DNA of 64,000 nucleotides from Escherichia coli (GCF_045037415.1 NZ_CP173438.1), one strand, 5' to 3'. Counted from the stretch's first letter, positions 30,051-63,638 are shown. The notes: generated by a model not told the origin, from the letters alone. Translations and numbers: made by a program.

Positions 30051-30194
30051 TGCCGGATGCGGCGCGAGCGCCTTATCCGGCCTACAAAAACATGCACATT
30101 CAATATATTGCAGAGTTCACGTAGGCCTGATAAGCGTAGCGTATCAGGCAGTTTTGTGTTTGTCATCAGTCTCATGCCGGGCATAGCCCGGCAT
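30051..30194. repeat. REP/BIME-type composite extragenic palindrome (copy B)
   Basis: tgccggatgcggcgcgagcgccttatccggcctac ... aggcctgataagcgtagcgtatcaggca ... tgccgggcatagcccggca; same core as copy A. Confidence 0.75.
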
Positions 30195-54999: not shown

Positions 55000-56283
55000 G
55001 TGAACACATTTTCAGTTTCCCGTCTGGCGCTGGCATTGGCTTTTGGCGTGACGCTGACCGCCTGTAGCTCAACACCGCCCGATCAACGTCCTTCTGATCA
55101 AACCGCGCCTGGTACCTCTTCTCGCCCGATTCTGTCGGCAAAAGAAGCGCAGAATTTCGATGCTCAACACTATTTTGCATCCCTGACACCAGGTGCGGCA
55201 GCGTGGAATCCTTCCCCGATTACCCTGCCTGCGCAACCTGACTTTGTTGTCGGCCCGGCGGGTACTCAAGGTGTAACGCATACCACGATTCAGGCGGCGG
55301 TAGATGCGGCAATTATCAAGCGTACCAACAAGCGCCAGTATATTGCCGTGATGCCTGGTGAGTATCAGGGAACGGTGTATGTCCCTGCCGCTCCGGGTGG
55401 AATTACTCTGTACGGTACAGGTGAAAAACCGATTGATGTGAAGATTGGGCTTTCCCTTGATGGTGGCATGAGCCCTGCCGACTGGCGTCACGACGTCAAC
55501 CCGCGCGGCAAATATATGCCAGGTAAACCGGCGTGGTATATGTACGATAGCTGCCAGAGTAAACGCAGCGACAGTATCGGTGTTCTCTGCTCTGCGGTCT
55601 TCTGGTCACAAAACAATGGCCTGCAACTGCAAAACCTGACCATCGAAAACACGCTGGGCGATAGCGTAGATGCGGGTAACCATCCGGCGGTGGCACTGCG
55701 TACTGATGGCGACAAAGTGCAGATCAATAACGTCAACATTCTCGGTCGTCAGAACACCTTCTTTGTCACCAACAGCGGTGTGCAGAACCGTCTGGAAACG
55801 AATCGCCAGCCGCGTACGCTGGTGACCAACAGCTATATTGAAGGGGATGTGGATATCGTTTCTGGTCGCGGCGCAGTGGTGTTCGATAACACCGAATTCC
55901 GCGTGGTGAACTCCCGTACCCAGCAAGAAGCGTATGTGTTTGCACCGGCTACGCTGTCCAACATTTACTACGGTTTCCTCGCCGTAAACAGCCGTTTCAA
56001 TGCTTCCGGTGATGGCGTGGCGCAACTGGGCCGCTCGCTGGATGTTGATGCCAATACCAACGGTCAGGTAGTGATCCGTGATAGCGCCATCAACGAAGGT
56101 TTTAACACAGCCAAACCGTGGGCTGATGCGGTGATCTCTAATCGCCCGTTTGCGGGTAACACCGGCAGCGTTGATGATAACGACGAAGTACAACGCAATC
56201 TGAATGACACTAACTACAACCGCATGTGGGAATACAATAACCGCGGCGTGGGTAGCAAAGTGGTTGCAGAGGCGAAGAAGTAG
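55000..56283 (+). CDS. ybhC: outer-membrane lipoprotein, pectinesterase-like (carboxylesterase)
   Basis: 427 aa; GTG start; lipoprotein signal with lipobox LTAC; parallel beta-helix-like repeats. Confidence 0.9.
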   Translation: MNTFSVSRLALALAFGVTLTACSSTPPDQRPSDQTAPGTSSRPILSAKEAQNFDAQHYFASLTPGAAAWNPSPITLPAQPDFVVGPAGTQGVTHTTIQAAVDAAIIKRTNKRQYIAVMPGEYQGTVYVPAAPGGITLYGTGEKPIDVKIGLSLDGGMSPADWRHDVNPRGKYMPGKPAWYMYDSCQSKRSDSIGVLCSAVFWSQNNGLQLQNLTIENTLGDSVDAGNHPAVALRTDGDKVQINNVNILGRQNTFFVTNSGVQNRLETNRQPRTLVTNSYIEGDVDIVSGRGAVVFDNTEFRVVNSRTQQEAYVFAPATLSNIYYGFLAVNSRFNASGDGVAQLGRSLDVDANTNGQVVIRDSAINEGFNTAKPWADAVISNRPFAGNTGSVDDNDEVQRNLNDTNYNRMWEYNNRGVGSKVVAEAKK

Positions 56284-56298
56284 GAGCTGTTAACTATG

Positions 56299-56414
<116 letters not shown>

Positions 56415-56423
56415 TGGCGCTTT

Positions 56424-58685
56424 TTACATCTGACGGTTTTTATTGAAGTTAATCAAACTACCCGCCTTGATAATCTCGCGTTCTTCGGCAGTCAGACTTT
56501 CCATATAGAGCGTGATTTCCGTTACCGGTGCATCTTCATGGATCACATAACCTTTAAACGTCGTTCCAGGATTATCCAGCGCCGCTTTAATGCCAGGGAT
56601 GTAAATGTAATCCCCCACTTCAAAGGTTGGCGCTTCCGCCATCTGCAGCGGTAACATCCCCCAGTTGATGACGTTAGAACGATAGCGTTTAGTCGCGTAC
56701 TCCTCGGCAATATTCGCCAGACCGCCAATCACACGCTGACAACTCGCCGCCTGTTCACGCGCAGAACCATCGCCTGGTTTCACCGCATAGACCATGCTGC
56801 CAATTTCAGTTTGCAGCGGATCAACATGTTCCTGACCAGCAATCTGCTTAATGCGCGCAAACACCTCTGCCATCTCGCTGACATTCCCCGCCAGACGCTG
56901 ATTTTCCAGCTCAGCAGTCGCTTTACTTCTGCCAACATAACCTGGATCGCGGCGTGACAGGGTAAACTCCGCCAGACCAATCGGATTTGAACGATAAGAA
57001 GAGGTTTCACCGGAAGGAATCAGTTCGTCGGTGGTGGTCACTTCGTCGAGGATCTTCGAGCACACTTTGAGGACGATATTGTCAGTCAGCGCACCCAATT
57101 CCGGCCAGTCTTTAATGTTCGGTCCGTAAATCAGCGGTTGCTGGGTCGCCCCTTTCACAAAGCCTTGATAGACGCGATTTTTATACGGCGTTACATCGAA
57201 GGCGTACTCCGGCACGTTGTCCCAGCAATCGAGTTCGCTGGCAGAGGTTAAATAGCCACCGTTTGCCGCAGTCGCAGCGATAGAACGAGCGTCCATCAAC
57301 GCCACCGCTGACATCTGCCCATTAGCTGGCTTAGAGCCTTCGCGGTTCGGGAAGTTACGCGTGGTGTGGCGAATACTCAAACCGTTGTTGATTGGCGTAT
57401 CGCCCGCGCCAAAGCATGGGCCGCAGAACGCGGTTCTGATGATTGCGCCTGCGCCAATCAAATCTGCGACCACACCTTTTTTGGCGAGATCCATAAACAC
57501 CGGCTGTGATGACGGGTAAACCGCTAACGAGAAGGTGTCATTGCCGCAGGATTGACCGCGCAGCGCATTCGCCGCCGCGATGACGTTTTCATAGTTACCG
57601 CCAGAACAGCCCGCGATAATCCCCTGCTGCACTTTCAGGCGACCATTTTCCACTTTATCCAGCAGCGAGAGTTTGGCTTTACCGTGCGCCACGCGTTCGG
57701 ACTCAATTTCAATCTCACGCAGAATGTCGGTCAGGTTCTGGTTCAGCGTGTCGATTTCATACACGTTGCTCGGGTGGAATGGCAGCGCAATCATTGGTTT
57801 GATGGCGCTTAAATCAACGCTGATGCAGCCATCGTAGTACGCCATTGGTTGAGGGTTAAGTTGGCAGTAATCCTGGCCGCGACCGTGCAGCGCCAGCCAG
57901 TTATGGACTTCTTCATCGGTTTGCCAGACAGAACTTAAACAGGTCGTTTCAGTGGTCATCACGTCAACGCTGTTACGGAAATCGGTAGAGAGCGCTGCAA
58001 CACCGGGACCTACGAACTCCATCACTTTGTTTTTGACGTAACCGTTTTTGAACACGGCACCGATGATAGCCAGCGCCACATCCTGCGGCCCCACATACGG
58101 CGCAGGTTTTCCGGTCAGATGCACCGCAACCACGCCCGGATAGTCGATATCCCAGGTGTCATTAAGCAGTTGTTTTACCAGCTCGCCGCCGCCCTCACCG
58201 ACTGCCATTGTCCCTAATGCGCCGTAACGGGTGTGGCTGTCTGATCCGAGGATCATTTTGCCGCCGCCAGCCATCATTTCACGCATATATTGATGGATGA
58301 CCGCAATATGCGGTGGCACAAAAATACCGCCATAACGCTGGGCCGCCGATAAACCAAAAACATGGTCATCACCGTTAATGGTGCCGCCGACGGCGCAGAG
58401 TGAGTTATGGCAGTTGGTCAGCACATACGGCAGCGGGAAACGTTCCATACCGGACGCTTTAGCGGTCTGTACAATACCAACAAAGGTAATATCGTGAGAG
58501 GCTAATGAATCAAACTTAATTTTAAGTTTATCCATATTTCCGGACGTATTATGAGAAGAGAGAATAGACCAGGCAATAGTGCCTTTTTTGGCTTCTTCTT
58601 TTTTAATTTCGCCGGTGAAATGTTCTTCGGCAATTATTTCGTTATTACTGGCGAGAAACACGCCTTTTTCAGATAACTTGATCAT
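56424..58685 (-). CDS. ybhJ: aconitase-family protein (putative hydratase/dehydratase)
   Basis: 753 aa from [10 protein letters not shown]...; aconitase-family catalytic and swivel-domain similarity. Confidence 0.88.
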
Positions 58686-58786
58686 CAAATGCTCCAGATA
58701 TCTGCGCACCGGAAAGTGCGCAGAAAGATAATAAATGGATATACTCTAAATAATTCGAGTTGCAGGAAGGCGACAAGCGAGTGAAT

Positions 58787-58818
58787 CCCCAGTCACTTAC
58801 ATAAGTAAGTGACTGGGG
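58787..58818. other. perfect 14-bp palindrome between ybhI and ybhJ
   Basis: ccccagtcacttac-ataa-gtaagtgactgggg; no flanking U-tract. Confidence 0.5.
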
Positions 58819-58867
58819 TGAGCGAACGCAGACGCAGCACATGCAACTTGAAGTATGACGAGTATAT

Positions 58868-60301
58868 TTACAGCATGTTCCAGCCGATCAGCATATTCCA
58901 CCACCACACGCCGAGGGTGATATGCACCAGGAAGGTTAATATCGTCAGTACCGCACCGACCAACCACCAGGATTTAATATCGTTGTAACCCACGCCAAAG
59001 ATGACCGGACCTGCCGCGCCGCCATAGTGAGTAACCATGCCGCCATAGGAGTTAGAGAACAACAGTGCCAGCGCGGTTAACATTAACGGTGCGCCGGAGA
59101 CATTCGCCAGCATGGCAAATACCGGTAACATGGCAACGATATAGGCACTACCAGAAGCGAAGAAATAACGCACGATGATGCTGAGGAAAATAATAACGAA
59201 GAAAGCAACGTTCCCGTGACCATCAAATGCCAGGTTATTTTTAAAGACTTCAGCTAACCATTCGAAGAATTTAACTTTCGATAATAAGGAGCTTAAGCCG
59301 ATAATACCGCCGTACCAGATTAAGGTATTCCAGCCGCCTTTATTTTTAACCACGTCTTCCCAGGTAACGATACCCAGCAGCAGCATAGTTGCCATAACAA
59401 CGATTGCCACGGTGGATTCATCAACCCCCAGAGACTTACTGAAAATCCAGCCCAGCAGCGCCAGCACAAAGACACCGAGCAGCATTTTTTCGCGGATTTT
59501 CATCGGTCCCAGTTCGGCAAGGCCCGCTTTAGCGATGGTTTTGTTATCCACCTTCTTAATTTCTGGTGGATACATGGTGTAAATCACCAGCGGGGTGACC
59601 AGCAGCATAATGATGCCCGGCAATCCGGCGGCTAACGCCCATCCACCCCAGCTAATTTGCAGGTGCAGAATGTCGTTGATCATTTTCAGCGCCAGAATGT
59701 TCCCCGCCATTGCGGTAAAGAACATATAGCTGGTGGTTTTGGTGACCATGTAAATGGACATCATCAGGTAATGTCCAACACGACGCGGACTTTTTTCCGG
59801 TTCTGATCCCAAAGCCACTGCCACGCTGTTGATGATCGGTAACACGATGCCGCCCGCACGCGCGGTGTTAGACGGTGTTGCCGGAGCCAGTACCAGATCG
59901 AGAAATACCGTAACGTAACCCAGACCCAGGGTAGTGCTACCAATTTTACCAATCAGCAGATAGGCAATACGTTTACCTAAGCCTGTGGTTACAAACGCGG
60001 CGCTTAAAGTAAACGCAGAAAACACCAGCCAGGTGGTACCGGAAGAGTAACCGCTTAATACAGCGGTGGTTTTAAATTCCCCACCTGATAAGTTACCCAC
60101 CACTACCATCGATGCGGCGACGGCAATTAACAGTACGACAGGTTCCGGGAAAGGCTTGATAACCAGCCCCACAATGGCCGCCAGGTAAATACCAAAAAGC
60201 ACCCACGCCAGTTCGCTTAATCCTGCCGGAGCTGGCATAAAGCCAATAATACATGGGATTGCTAATATCAGAATTAGCTTCCATAACGATTTCTTATTCA
60301 T
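58868..60301 (-). CDS. ybhI: DASS-family (divalent anion:Na+ symporter) transporter
   Basis: 477 aa; multi-pass membrane protein of CitT/SLC13 type. Confidence 0.88.
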   Translation of the reverse strand: MNKKSLWKLILILAIPCIIGFMPAPAGLSELAWVLFGIYLAAIVGLVIKPFPEPVVLLIAVAASMVVVGNLSGGEFKTTAVLSGYSSGTTWLVFSAFTLSAAFVTTGLGKRIAYLLIGKIGSTTLGLGYVTVFLDLVLAPATPSNTARAGGIVLPIINSVAVALGSEPEKSPRRVGHYLMMSIYMVTKTTSYMFFTAMAGNILALKMINDILHLQISWGGWALAAGLPGIIMLLVTPLVIYTMYPPEIKKVDNKTIAKAGLAELGPMKIREKMLLGVFVLALLGWIFSKSLGVDESTVAIVVMATMLLLGIVTWEDVVKNKGGWNTLIWYGGIIGLSSLLSKVKFFEWLAEVFKNNLAFDGHGNVAFFVIIFLSIIVRYFFASGSAYIVAMLPVFAMLANVSGAPLMLTALALLFSNSYGGMVTHYGGAAGPVIFGVGYNDIKSWWLVGAVLTILTFLVHITLGVWWWNMLIGWNML

Positions 60302-60376
60302 TTAATATCCTGTTCTTTCTGTATGACTCATACAGAATTCCTTTATTGATTGTCATTATCACGACAACAAAATTTT

Positions 60377-61429
60377 TCAGGGAAGATAAACTTCACCGGA
60401 AAATATTTTTCTGGTCGTCCGAATAACAGATGCGCGTAACGTCGTGGCATCCTGACCTTCATTACTTAAATGAACGTCGAGCGCACCACTGGGGTGTTCA
60501 ATATTGATATTGCCGTATCCTACAGAAGGGACGATTTGTCGGGTGACGGTACCTTCCAATGCACAACTACTGGAAATAGCAATAGCACCGGTTATCGCCA
60601 AAGCGCGATGGCAAGAATGCGGCATAAAATAACGCACATTAATTGCCCCGCCTTTCTGCGCTGGAGAAATAAGTACAGGTTTAGGGATAACCATATTACT
60701 GACATCGCCTAAACCCATTGCTTTACCCGCTTGTAGACGGATAGATTCAATGCGGGCTAATAATGCGTTGTCGGCATCCAGCTCTGCCGGTAATTCATAG
60801 CCTGTTTTTCCCAGATATTCAGCAGGAATAATGACAACTGGCATCGCCATATCGATACAGGTCACCGGGACATCGTCAAAATAATCAATCTGATTATCCG
60901 TCGGGAAGACTTTTCCGGTTTTCGTTCCGGCGGCATTCAGGAAAGTGAGCGCAACCGGTGCGGCAGTACCCGGTACGCCGTCAATTCTGGCGCTACCCTC
61001 GTACTCGACAACACCATTTGGCGTTTGCACATCAGCTTCGATGAACGTACCCGTATTGACGTTGCGGATACGTACGCGGGTAACTGGCGAAGTCGCTGCA
61101 ATCAAACCATTTTCAATGGCGAATGCCCCAACGCCAGACAGCATATTGCCGCAGTTAGGCGTGGTATCGACACGTTGCTCATGGACGATAACTTGAGCAA
61201 ACAGATAATCGACATCTGCACGCGGATCGCTGGAGCGGCTAATAATGGCGACTTTACTGGTCAGCGGATTACCGCCGCCAATACCGTCAATTTCCAGATC
61301 GTTACCGGAACCCATAATTGCCATCAATATTTTATCGCGCTGCGTTTGATCTTCGGGTAGATGTTCCGCTAACAGGAACGCGCCCCTCGAGGTTCCACCT
61401 CGCATCATCACGCAGGGTATTTTTTTCAT
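60377..61429 (-). CDS. ybhH: PrpF/AcnD-accessory-like isomerase
   Basis: 350 aa; PrpF-family diaminopimelate-epimerase-like fold. Confidence 0.85.
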   Translation of the reverse strand: MKKIPCVMMRGGTSRGAFLLAEHLPEDQTQRDKILMAIMGSGNDLEIDGIGGGNPLTSKVAIISRSSDPRADVDYLFAQVIVHEQRVDTTPNCGNMLSGVGAFAIENGLIAATSPVTRVRIRNVNTGTFIEADVQTPNGVVEYEGSARIDGVPGTAAPVALTFLNAAGTKTGKVFPTDNQIDYFDDVPVTCIDMAMPVVIIPAEYLGKTGYELPAELDADNALLARIESIRLQAGKAMGLGDVSNMVIPKPVLISPAQKGGAINVRYFMPHSCHRALAITGAIAISSSCALEGTVTRQIVPSVGYGNINIEHPSGALDVHLSNEGQDATTLRASVIRTTRKIFSGEVYLP

Positions 61430-61612
61430 AATAATGCCCTCAATTTAAAAACATAACTTATTGCGATATGGTTACATTAAGGGCAAAGCATCTCTAATGA
61501 CTTTAGCTCAACGATTAATAACATTTTTTCATTAATTTAAGTTGGCTAAATGCAGTTAAAATTTTTAACTGCCAGTCACCCAAAATCGTCGCTTCCATTT
61601 TCCGGAGTAATA

Positions 61613-62566
61613 ATGAAGCATGAATTATCAAGTATGAAGGCATTTGTCATACTGGCAGAGTCCAGTTCATTTAACAATGCTGCTAAATTACTCAATATTA
61701 CGCAACCTGCATTAACGCGAAGAATAAAAAAGATGGAGGAAGATTTACACATTCAACTATTTGAGCGTACAACTCGCAAGGTTACGTTAACAAAAGCAGG
61801 AAAAAGGTTGCTCCCGGAGGCGCGGGAATTAATAAAAAAATTCGATGAAACGCTTTTTAGTATTCGCGACATGAATGCTTATCATCGAGGTATGGTGACG
61901 TTAGCGTGTATTCCGACCGCGGTATTTTATTTTTTACCATTGGCAATCGGTAAATTTAATGAGCTGTATCCCAATATTAAAGTGCGGATTCTGGAACAAG
62001 GCACGAATAATTGCATGGAATCGGTGCTGTGTAACGAATCAGACTTTGGCATAAACATGAACAACGTCACAAATTCATCCATTGATTTTACCCCACTGGT
62101 CAACGAGCCGTTCGTGCTGGCCTGTCGGCGTGACCATCCATTGGCCAAAAAGCAGCTTGTAGAATGGCAGGAGTTAGTGGGTTACAAAATGATTGGCGTA
62201 CGCTCCTCCAGCGGCAACCGACTGTTGATAGAACAACAGCTAGCCGACAAGCCCTGGAAGCTGGACTGGTTTTACGAAGTGCGTCATCTTTCGACGTCAT
62301 TAGGGCTGGTGGAGGCGGGACTGGGGATTTCGGCGCTTCCTGGTCTGGCAATGCCCCATGCGCCCTATTCTTCGATTATTGGTATCCCACTGGTGGAACC
62401 CGTTATACGTCGGACATTGGGGATTATTCGCCGCAAAGATGCCGTGCTTTCTCCGGCAGCTGAACGCTTTTTTGCCTTGCTGATTAATTTGTGGACTGAC
62501 GATAAAGACAATTTGTGGACCAATATCGTCGAACGCCAGAGACATGCGTTACAGGAGATAGGTTAA
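61613..62566 (+). CDS. ybhD: LysR-type transcriptional regulator
   Basis: 317 aa from MKHELSSMKAFVIL...; N-terminal LysR HTH; divergent from ybhH. Confidence 0.85.
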   Translation: MKHELSSMKAFVILAESSSFNNAAKLLNITQPALTRRIKKMEEDLHIQLFERTTRKVTLTKAGKRLLPEARELIKKFDETLFSIRDMNAYHRGMVTLACIPTAVFYFLPLAIGKFNELYPNIKVRILEQGTNNCMESVLCNESDFGINMNNVTNSSIDFTPLVNEPFVLACRRDHPLAKKQLVEWQELVGYKMIGVRSSSGNRLLIEQQLADKPWKLDWFYEVRHLSTSLGLVEAGLGISALPGLAMPHAPYSSIIGIPLVEPVIRRTLGIIRRKDAVLSPAAERFFALLINLWTDDKDNLWTNIVERQRHALQEIG

Positions 62567-62570
62567 TACA

Positions 62571-62594
62571 CCGGCGCAGGAGAGACTGCGCCGG
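62571..62594. terminator. bidirectional terminator hairpin between ybhD and pgl
   Basis: ccggcgcaggagagactgcgccgg. Confidence 0.7.
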
Positions 62595-62606
62595 TTAAAT
62601 CAGCGG

Positions 62607-63638
<1,032 letters not shown>

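Follow-up and report, generated by a model that had tools for sequence, protein, structure and literature searches.

We analysed a 64,000-nucleotide stretch of Escherichia coli DNA (GCF_045037415.1, NZ_CP173438.1; hereafter the window) with respect to the genes ybhJ, ybhI, ybhH and ybhD, which lie between positions 56424 and 62566. By analogy with systems of other bacteria, these genes form, on balance, a probable substrate-inducible cassette for the utilisation of trans-aconitate, an abundant plant acid found in grasses and herbivore diets. Trans-aconitate systems of the tarRAB type are already known, and we class the E. coli cassette as a variant of that kind. The reading draws on gene families, catalytic residues, the conservation of the cassette and the gene contexts found elsewhere. 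The four open reading frames (ORFs) match the RefSeq genes ybhJ, ybhI, ybhH and ybhD:

56424-58685, minus strand: ybhJ, 753 amino acids from the ATG at 58685, iron-sulphur (Fe-S) hydro-lyase of the aconitase superfamily
58868-60301, minus strand: ybhI, 477 amino acids, anion transporter of the DASS family
60377-61429, minus strand: ybhH, 350 amino acids, allylic isomerase of the PrpF family
61613-62566, plus strand: ybhD, 317 amino acids, LysR-type regulator

The longest ORF of ybhJ opens at the GTG at 58709, and the ATG at 58685 is preceded at 7 nt by GGAG; the RefSeq start of ybhD is 61613, with GGAG 6 nt upstream. The genes of the minus-strand trio are separated by 75 bp (ybhH-ybhI) and 182 bp (ybhI-ybhJ), ybhD diverges across 183 bp, and the cluster is flanked by ybhC, convergent with ybhJ, and by pgl. 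An earlier note on this DNA had described ybhJ, ybhI and ybhH as co-oriented and the LysR gene ybhD as divergent, which was confirmed by the ORFs and by RefSeq. Its family assignments also hold (Aconitase and Aconitase_C for YbhJ, DASS for YbhI, PrpF for YbhH, LysR for YbhD), and its logic, that an importer, an isomerase, a hydratase and a regulator together serve an unsaturated tricarboxylate, is supported by the families and by comparative genomics. The word "uncharacterised" used there is right in that searches of the literature by gene name and b-number gave no substrate assignment for ybhH, ybhI or ybhJ, but repression of ybhH by YbhD is already in print (PMC9068703). Similarly, no published assignment contradicts the description of the substrate as "unidentified", but comparative genomics narrows it to trans-aconitate.

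In the scheme that we infer, which extends to the substrate, the direction of transport, the activity of YbhJ, the effector and the co-transcription of ybhJ, YbhI would take up the tricarboxylate, possibly in exchange for another carboxylate. YbhH, with Lys and Cys as acid-base catalysts, would then move the double bond so that trans-aconitate becomes cis-aconitate, and YbhJ would hydrate cis-aconitate to citrate or isocitrate. The product would enter the tricarboxylic acid cycle or, under anaerobiosis, be cleaved by citrate lyase. YbhD, acting on the divergent promoter region, would keep ybhH silent until it meets an effector, which is presumably cis-aconitate or the substrate.

The relatives of YbhJ were collected by a scan of one genome per species, which gave 80 loci. 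Outside Escherichia, Citrobacter and Edwardsiella, these loci belong to gut and rumen anaerobes (Lachnospiraceae, Collinsella, Megasphaera, Erysipelotrichaceae, Synergistales and Oscillospiraceae) and encode proteins with 60-73% identity to YbhJ; horizontal transfer is the simplest explanation of such identity across phyla. The neighbouring ORFs were clustered, the clusters were named by NCBIfam, and occurrences within four ORFs were counted over the 53 non-enteric, non-Collinsella loci. A citrate synthase and/or isocitrate-dehydrogenase-family gene was found near the YbhJ-like gene in 16 of the 53 loci, citrate lyase genes in seven, PrpF in four and any of these in 22; the matches to citrate synthase, CitF and citrate-lyase ligase were above the NCBI curated cutoffs, those to CitE and the dehydrogenase below them. 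At one locus (L016), the YbhJ-like gene is followed 30 bp downstream by citrate synthase and then by an isocitrate-dehydrogenase-family gene. The citrate-enzyme neighbours thus indicate citrate, cis-aconitate and isocitrate as substrates of the YbhJ family, and the gene contexts of its orthologues suggest that E. coli YbhJ may be an aconitate hydratase acting on these acids.

Five anaerobe loci (L093, L094, L052, L082 and L084) have the same four-part architecture as the E. coli cassette, with identical gene order. In Oribacterium (L052) a divergent LysR gene is followed by PrpF, a MatC/CitMHS-type di/tricarboxylate carrier, the YbhJ-like gene and citD, citE and citF, and L082 and L084 are similar; in Acidaminococcus (L093 and L094, reached via the carrier) the order is divergent LysR, PrpF, carrier and YbhJ-like gene. 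The aconitase-like proteins of these cassettes are 61-68% identical to YbhJ (66% over the full length in Acidaminococcus) and have the same residues at all 19 active-site positions checked. Acidaminococcus fermentans is a classic gut and rumen trans-aconitate fermenter, which degrades the acid via citrate, oxaloacetate and pyruvate, and its genome paper describes the trans-aconitate pathway with the adjacent genes for the MatC carrier Acfer_0630 and the "aconitate hydratase domain protein" Acfer_0631 (PMC3035267). Since the 19 active-site-equivalent positions are identical in every YbhJ orthologue of at least 59% identity, specificity should carry over among them. The MatC/CitMHS carrier has 78-85% identity among Lachnospiraceae, Synergistaceae and Acidaminococcus (proteins P0271-P0390), which suggests a recent cross-phylum spread. 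Unlike the E. coli cassette, the anaerobe cassettes combine this carrier with a PrpF protein of a long-form clade, 37-41% identical to YbhH. Because of this separate PrpF clade, the E. coli version resembles a mosaic that arrived at the same layout.

The second line of comparison is provided by tarR-tarAB of Bacillus velezensis, in which a divergent LysR gene, a PrpF-superfamily isomerase gene in the first position and an importer gene immediately downstream are found as in E. coli, and the product of which enters central metabolism, as proposed here for the E. coli cassette (PMC11495376). TarA and TbrA, both of the PrpF family, are demonstrated aconitate isomerases, and tarR is the divergent LysR gene (PMC11495376). 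In contrast to MFS-type TarB, the E. coli importer is a DASS protein, a functional analogue and not a homologue, and the E. coli cassette has an extra YbhJ-type aconitase. YbhD is a repressor according to the published data, whereas TarR is a trans-aconitate-dependent activator (PMC11495376). A survey of TarA homologues from 2024 includes Escherichia fergusonii, Shigella, Klebsiella, Citrobacter and Edwardsiella at 37-40% identity (PMC11495376); we presume that these enterobacterial homologues are the YbhH orthologues, the survey table giving species and identities alone.

Published phenotypes of other enterobacteria are consistent with the use of trans-aconitate. The acid is used by 88-100% of most Klebsiella pneumoniae clones, which are always negative for itaconate and tricarballylate (PMC2656620), and Enterobacter pasteurii uses both cis- and trans-aconitate. 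The K. pneumoniae clones Ozaenae and CC82 are trans-aconitate-negative. YbhJ orthologues are carried by both Klebsiella and Enterobacter. Itaconate was rejected as a substrate on the grounds of the negative phenotype of the cassette-bearing klebsiellae.

The cassette is widely conserved. A 7-kb stretch including it matches several E. coli chromosomes with 100% identity, and its coverage is at least 80% in 5316 of the 5426 complete E. coli genomes (~98%); ybhH itself was found at a coverage of at least 80% in 5322 of them. A comparison of neighbourhoods across Enterobacteriaceae, suggested in the earlier note, showed that Escherichia, Citrobacter, Klebsiella and Edwardsiella keep the four genes as one group, with at least three distinct contexts on the chromosome; the arrangement is not due to chance. 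In Escherichia and Citrobacter the cassette lies between ybhC and pgl, and in Klebsiella and Edwardsiella at other sites, which indicates that it moved as a unit. A divergent LysR gene beside the isomerase gene is also found in Klebsiella, Edwardsiella, Citrobacter, Rhizobium, Variovorax and Acidaminococcus. In K. aerogenes, where the cassette includes a second DASS gene, ~2 kb separate it from the citrate-fermentation locus citS-oadGAB-citAB. Broken copies were seen as well: ybhH is split by IS1 in a few strains (hits H1, H59 and H60; E. coli AVS0155 and FCI17), and in Edwardsiella tarda (L004, 8404-10001) ybhI is apparently broken (two tblastn pieces, no called gene), with ybhD, ybhH and ybhJ intact.

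YbhJ matches the Pfam domains Aconitase (7e-88) and Aconitase_C and scores 1540 bits with the NCBIfam model NF008503 (cutoff 641). YbhJ agrees with the canonical aconitases (mitochondrial aconitase, AcnA and the PRK07229 type) in domain order, in its three cysteines and in having the catalytic residues His, Asp, Ser and Arg. In the alignment to mitochondrial aconitase, all Fe-S cluster cysteines are kept (C360, C421 and C424), together with the equivalents of H101, H147, D165, S166, H167, E262, R447, R452, S642 and R644; the alignment from a PDB search with the C-terminal part of YbhJ stopped short of the R580 region of the mitochondrial enzyme. Unlike the canonical enzymes, YbhJ is ~100 residues longer between domain 3 and the swivel domain, and it is only 27% identical to the PRK07229-type paralogue that adjoins YbhJ-like genes at some loci. 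The degenerate homologues P0148 and P0154, unlike YbhJ, have no cluster cysteines. Judged by these residues, YbhJ looks like an active aconitase-type enzyme. In some E. coli strains an in-frame deletion of 119 codons of ybhJ was observed (L098, 3001-4905; P0037; 57078-57434 in the window), which takes out C421, C424, R443 and R448 and presumably inactivates the enzyme; the segment 57078-57434 is absent or only partly present in no more than 55 of the 5426 complete genomes. A ybhJ(L54I) allele is present in the widely used MG1655-derived strain RL3000 and its derivatives (PMC13192712).

YbhH matches the Pfam family PrpF (PF04303) at 8e-168, and the PDB entry 6OTV, deposited as a "putative isomerase", is YbhH with one substitution. 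The catalytic residues of LigU, which we take to be Lys66 and Cys100, align with K59 and C93 of YbhH, and both are conserved in all compared members. YbhH shares with LigU and GalD the fold and the catalytic Lys/Cys pair, and it is predicted to perform the same type of 1,3-allylic shift on a tricarboxylate resembling trans-aconitate. Like AcnD-PrpF of the 2-methylcitrate cycle in Shewanella and Ralstonia, the E. coli cassette pairs an aconitase-family enzyme with a PrpF-family isomerase that corrects the geometry of a double bond, but in E. coli the isomerase would precede a hydratase and not follow a dehydratase. The closest non-enteric relatives of YbhH occur in Rhizobium (58% identity; with a LysR gene and an ABC transporter) and Variovorax (54%; with a LysR gene and a tripartite tricarboxylate binding protein), that is, in import-plus-isomerase cassettes and not in lignin or gallate clusters. 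A B. thuringiensis plasmid encodes a PrpF protein together with a DMT transporter, presumably tbrAB; this protein has the same short form as YbhH and is 41% identical to it. In a neighbour-joining tree of PrpF proteins (constructed without bootstrap values), the proteins of the enterobacteria fall into a single clade with those of Rhizobium and Variovorax; this clade groups with the TbrA-like protein and the clade of the 4-oxalomesaconate (OMA) isomerases, and the PrpF proteins of the Firmicute cassettes form the separate long-form clade. The YbhH-like protein on the Variovorax sp. SRS16 plasmid (L091, 6995-9019), beside the gene for a tripartite tricarboxylate binding protein, is annotated with 675 amino acids, about twice the normal length, and may be a fusion.

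YbhI scores 553 bits with the TIGR00785 dass model (cutoff 199) and is 35.7% identical to the spinach 2-oxoglutarate/malate translocator (PMC9068703). We propose that it is the importer or exchanger for the substrate.

Several observations weigh against a trans-aconitate cassette. YbhH is accepted by the NCBIfam equivalog model OMA_tautomer (NF033377; 515 bits, cutoff 440), which explains its RefSeq name "4-oxalomesaconate tautomerase". It is nearer to the proven OMA isomerases LigU, Sphingobium FldA and Ralstonia GalD (45-47% identity) than to the Firmicute PrpF proteins beside YbhJ-like genes (36-41%), and the PrpF proteins of the anaerobe cassettes are not its orthologues. AI-79, a probable YbhH-like protein of Providencia rettgeri, had less than 1% aconitate-isomerase activity; its construct apparently started from an internal Met, and its orthology to YbhH is deduced from primers alone. 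YbhJ is substituted at five aligned aconitase positions (Q72H, D100C, N258V, N446T and S643A in mitochondrial numbering), and most of its anaerobe orthologues have no PrpF neighbour, so the YbhJ family does not depend on the isomerase. Inactivation of ybhJ by Blank et al. in 2002 reportedly left the residual aconitase activity of acnAB mutants unchanged. E. coli already has AcnA and AcnB, and the need for a third aconitase, whether for tolerance to trans-aconitate or for anaerobic expression, is itself something that we infer. The only reported growth phenotype of the ybhD deletion is linked to malate (PMC9068703), and the literature contains no enzyme assay, transport assay or report of E. 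coli growth on trans-aconitate.

The OMA_tautomer score and the identity to LigU, FldA and GalD, with the catalytic Lys and Cys conserved, would fit a module for lignin- or tannin-derived OMA, in which YbhH would be a true OMA delta-isomerase, YbhJ would replace LigJ/GalB and an unlinked aldolase would cleave the product; we consider this improbable. OMA is chemically close to trans-aconitate, from which it differs by an oxalyl group replacing a carboxyl group. Since a 1,3-allylic shift is involved in either isomerisation, the similarity to LigU is no argument against aconitate. The OMA_tautomer model separates the OMA and aconitate functions poorly, since the TbrA-like protein of B. thuringiensis scores 414 bits. 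The FldA and GalD loci carry genes for a hydratase of the amidohydrolase type, for the LigK/GalC aldolase and for a ring-cleavage dioxygenase, whereas neither the window nor any enterobacterial cassette has the LigJ/GalB hydratase, the LigK/GalC aldolase or the dioxygenase; the E. coli locus has genes for a transporter and for an Fe-S hydratase. Genes for citrate synthase, the dehydrogenase and citrate lyase are the linked partners of those YbhJ orthologues whose active sites are identical. RraA/LigK-family genes (cluster c29; annotated as CHA aldolase or oxaloacetate decarboxylase) adjoin some YbhJ-like and citrate-lyase genes (L018, L032 and L061); they could hint at OMA-type chemistry but are equally readable as soluble oxaloacetate decarboxylases downstream of citrate lyase. 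The RefSeq name of YbhH is thus probably an over-annotation. Another aconitate-like or alkyl acid (2-methylaconitate, homoaconitate, itaconate/citraconate/mesaconate or methylitaconate/dimethylmaleate), with AcnD-PrpF and Mii-DmdAB as precedents, is an unlikely substrate, though the best placed of the alternatives. The pairing of a PrpF-family isomerase with an aconitase-family hydratase is known from the nicotinate pathway. It is also known from the methylcitrate pathway (PMC5690661), YbhH matches the 3-methylitaconate isomerase 3G7K at 2e-67, one YbhJ orthologue bears the UniRef name "2,3-dimethylmalate dehydratase large subunit", and the five substitutions of YbhJ at active-site positions would agree with a substrate other than aconitate. 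However, the scores with the equivalog models for prpF (TIGR02334; YbhH, 187 bits, cutoff 441) and AcnD (TIGR02333; YbhJ, 64 bits, cutoff 1420) are far below the cutoffs, and genes for prpB/prpC, dimethylmalate lyase or a mutase were not found near the cluster in the window, unlike in the Ralstonia prp locus. Moreover, the cassette-bearing klebsiellae are itaconate-negative (PMC2656620), and the neighbours of the YbhJ orthologues encode citrate enzymes.

A role in detoxification or metabolite repair, in which trans-aconitate formed spontaneously from cis-aconitate or taken in with the diet is removed to protect AcnA and AcnB, and in which YbhI might be an exporter, is rather doubtful too. Trans-aconitate inhibits aconitase (PMC11495376), the PrpF-type isomerase of B. 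thuringiensis is paired with an exporter, deletion of ybhJ makes the cells peroxide-sensitive and low in NADPH (Krisko et al. 2014, PMC4054840), and no published report of growth of E. coli on trans-aconitate was found. Against this, the relatives of YbhH linked to ABC and tripartite transporters point to uptake, cassette-bearing Klebsiella and Enterobacter grow on trans-aconitate, and the citrate lyase links in the anaerobes indicate catabolism. The low NADPH of the ybhJ deletion strain is compatible with a contribution of YbhJ to isocitrate supply. The least credible alternative is that YbhJ is catalytically dead, with a sensing or regulatory role, and that ybhHI alone are the metabolic unit. 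YbhJ was termed "a catalytically inactive paralog" with reference to Blank et al. 2002 (Krisko et al. 2014, PMC4054840), ybhHI was treated as a cluster and ybhJ as a separate gene (PMC9068703), and the hairpin of a repeat element parts ybhI from ybhJ. The Fe-S ligands and catalytic residues are, however, intact and invariant across phyla at 60-97% identity, for which the statement on inactivity was rejected; the degenerate homologues P0148 and P0154 look different, and the Fe-S segment is kept in 5371 of the 5426 complete E. coli genomes. The negative result cited for YbhJ probably came from conditions under which YbhD would be expected to repress the locus. Each of these alternatives is weaker, in our ranking, than the trans-aconitate cassette.

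A wider proposal, which is clearly more tentative than the trans-aconitate function as such, is that YbhJ-type proteins represent a distinct, horizontally mobile, gut-associated class of aconitases. Enterobacteria might have joined one of them to a proteobacterial-type isomerase and a DASS carrier, thereby remaking the design of the anaerobes, and E. coli and its relatives might feed on dietary trans-aconitate in the anaerobic gut via citrate and citrate lyase, with an aconitase tolerant of this inhibitor of AcnA and AcnB. If the trans-aconitate reading is true, four adjacent y-genes present in ~98% of E. coli strains gain a concrete function, E. coli has a third true aconitase, and both the probable over-annotation of YbhH in RefSeq and the statement that YbhJ is "catalytically inactive" are corrected. 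It would also link a plant acid of grasses and herbivore diets to a cassette common to gut bacteria across phyla, and would bear on nutrient niches in the gut and on the metabolism of trans-aconitate and tricarballylate in ruminants.

The regulation of the cassette is partly described in the literature. In a ybhD deletion strain ybhH was strongly derepressed (Rodionova et al. 2022, PMC9068703). One YbhD site was reported by ChIP-exo (chromatin immunoprecipitation followed by digestion with an exonuclease), with ybhH and ybhI named as targets, and the growth phenotype of the deletion strain with L-malate led to the tentative role "L-malate utilization related" (PMC9068703). Fold-changes for ybhI or ybhJ were not found in the supplements of that paper (PMC9068703). 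YbhD gave LysR-family matches only, none of them over an equivalog cutoff. The following elements were located in the non-coding parts of the cluster and at its 3' boundary:

61430-61612, no strand assigned: divergent ybhH/ybhD control region, 183 bp, AT-rich, with blocks conserved in six Enterobacterales
61514-61536, no strand assigned: candidate YbhD box ATTAAT-N11-ATTAAT, containing the LysR motif T-N11-A
60317-60337, no strand assigned: 21-bp perfect palindrome TTCTGTATGA-G-TCATACAGAA (whole: TTCTGTATGAGTCATACAGAA) within the ybhH-ybhI spacer, preceding the ybhI start by 15 nt
58739-58867, minus strand: enterobacterial repetitive intergenic consensus (ERIC) element, also called intergenic repeat unit (IRU), which takes up the ybhI-ybhJ spacer and follows immediately on the stop codon of ybhI
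56284-56423, no strand assigned: spacer between the convergent ybhJ and ybhC with a repetitive extragenic palindromic (REP) element, the 3' boundary of the unit; exact canonical REP at 56300-56329

The published ChIP-exo site and the derepression of ybhH point to 61430-61612 as the control region of YbhD. Within it, the sequence at 61514-61536 fits the LysR T-N11-A rule and is a candidate YbhD box. The pattern ATTAAT-N11-ATTAAT occurs once in the window (0 expected by chance); in the six Enterobacterales the first half-site does not vary and the second reads ATTAAT, ACTAAT, ATCAAT or ATAAGT. The palindrome at 60317-60337 was also considered as an operator and rejected, as it lacks conservation outside Escherichia: its arms are kept in E. 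albertii and not in Citrobacter, Edwardsiella or Klebsiella. Promoter and terminator scans gave nothing over shuffled controls, and Rfam gave no match in 56000-63000. No terminator-like site was found on the coding strand of the two intergenic gaps, and co-transcription of ybhJ with ybhHI is therefore plausible.

The ERIC repeat forms a long imperfect hairpin (-55.3 kcal/mol, z = -8.3), and the sequence that we take to be the ERIC2 primer matches it exactly at 58803-58824; the median number of copies of the repeat is 5 per E. coli genome at megablast stringency. REP/BIME (bacterial interspersed mosaic element) sequences are also found at 30052-30081 in the window. The REP elements in the ybhJ/ybhC spacer account for the dozens of additional positions that BLAST gave in each genome when the 7-kb stretch was searched.

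A second paralogue of YbhJ, with 41-49% identity, was observed at four loci (L009, 7920-10202; L032, 11234-13540; L044, 6362-8698; L007, 8001-10241). It has Pro for H64 and, in three of the four copies, Ser for A642, with further differences at V242 and T442 in the L007 copy. Its immediate neighbours at L009 and L032 are PrpF and an isocitrate-dehydrogenase-family gene, and it is often accompanied by a YbhJ orthologue and a canonical 650-aa aconitase. It may have a different aconitate-like specificity. The contexts of two distant YbhJ homologues (P0126 and P0133) and of a protein with 59% identity on a 3.3-kb contig (P0121) contributed little beyond PrpF and a dehydrogenase gene beside a paralogue.

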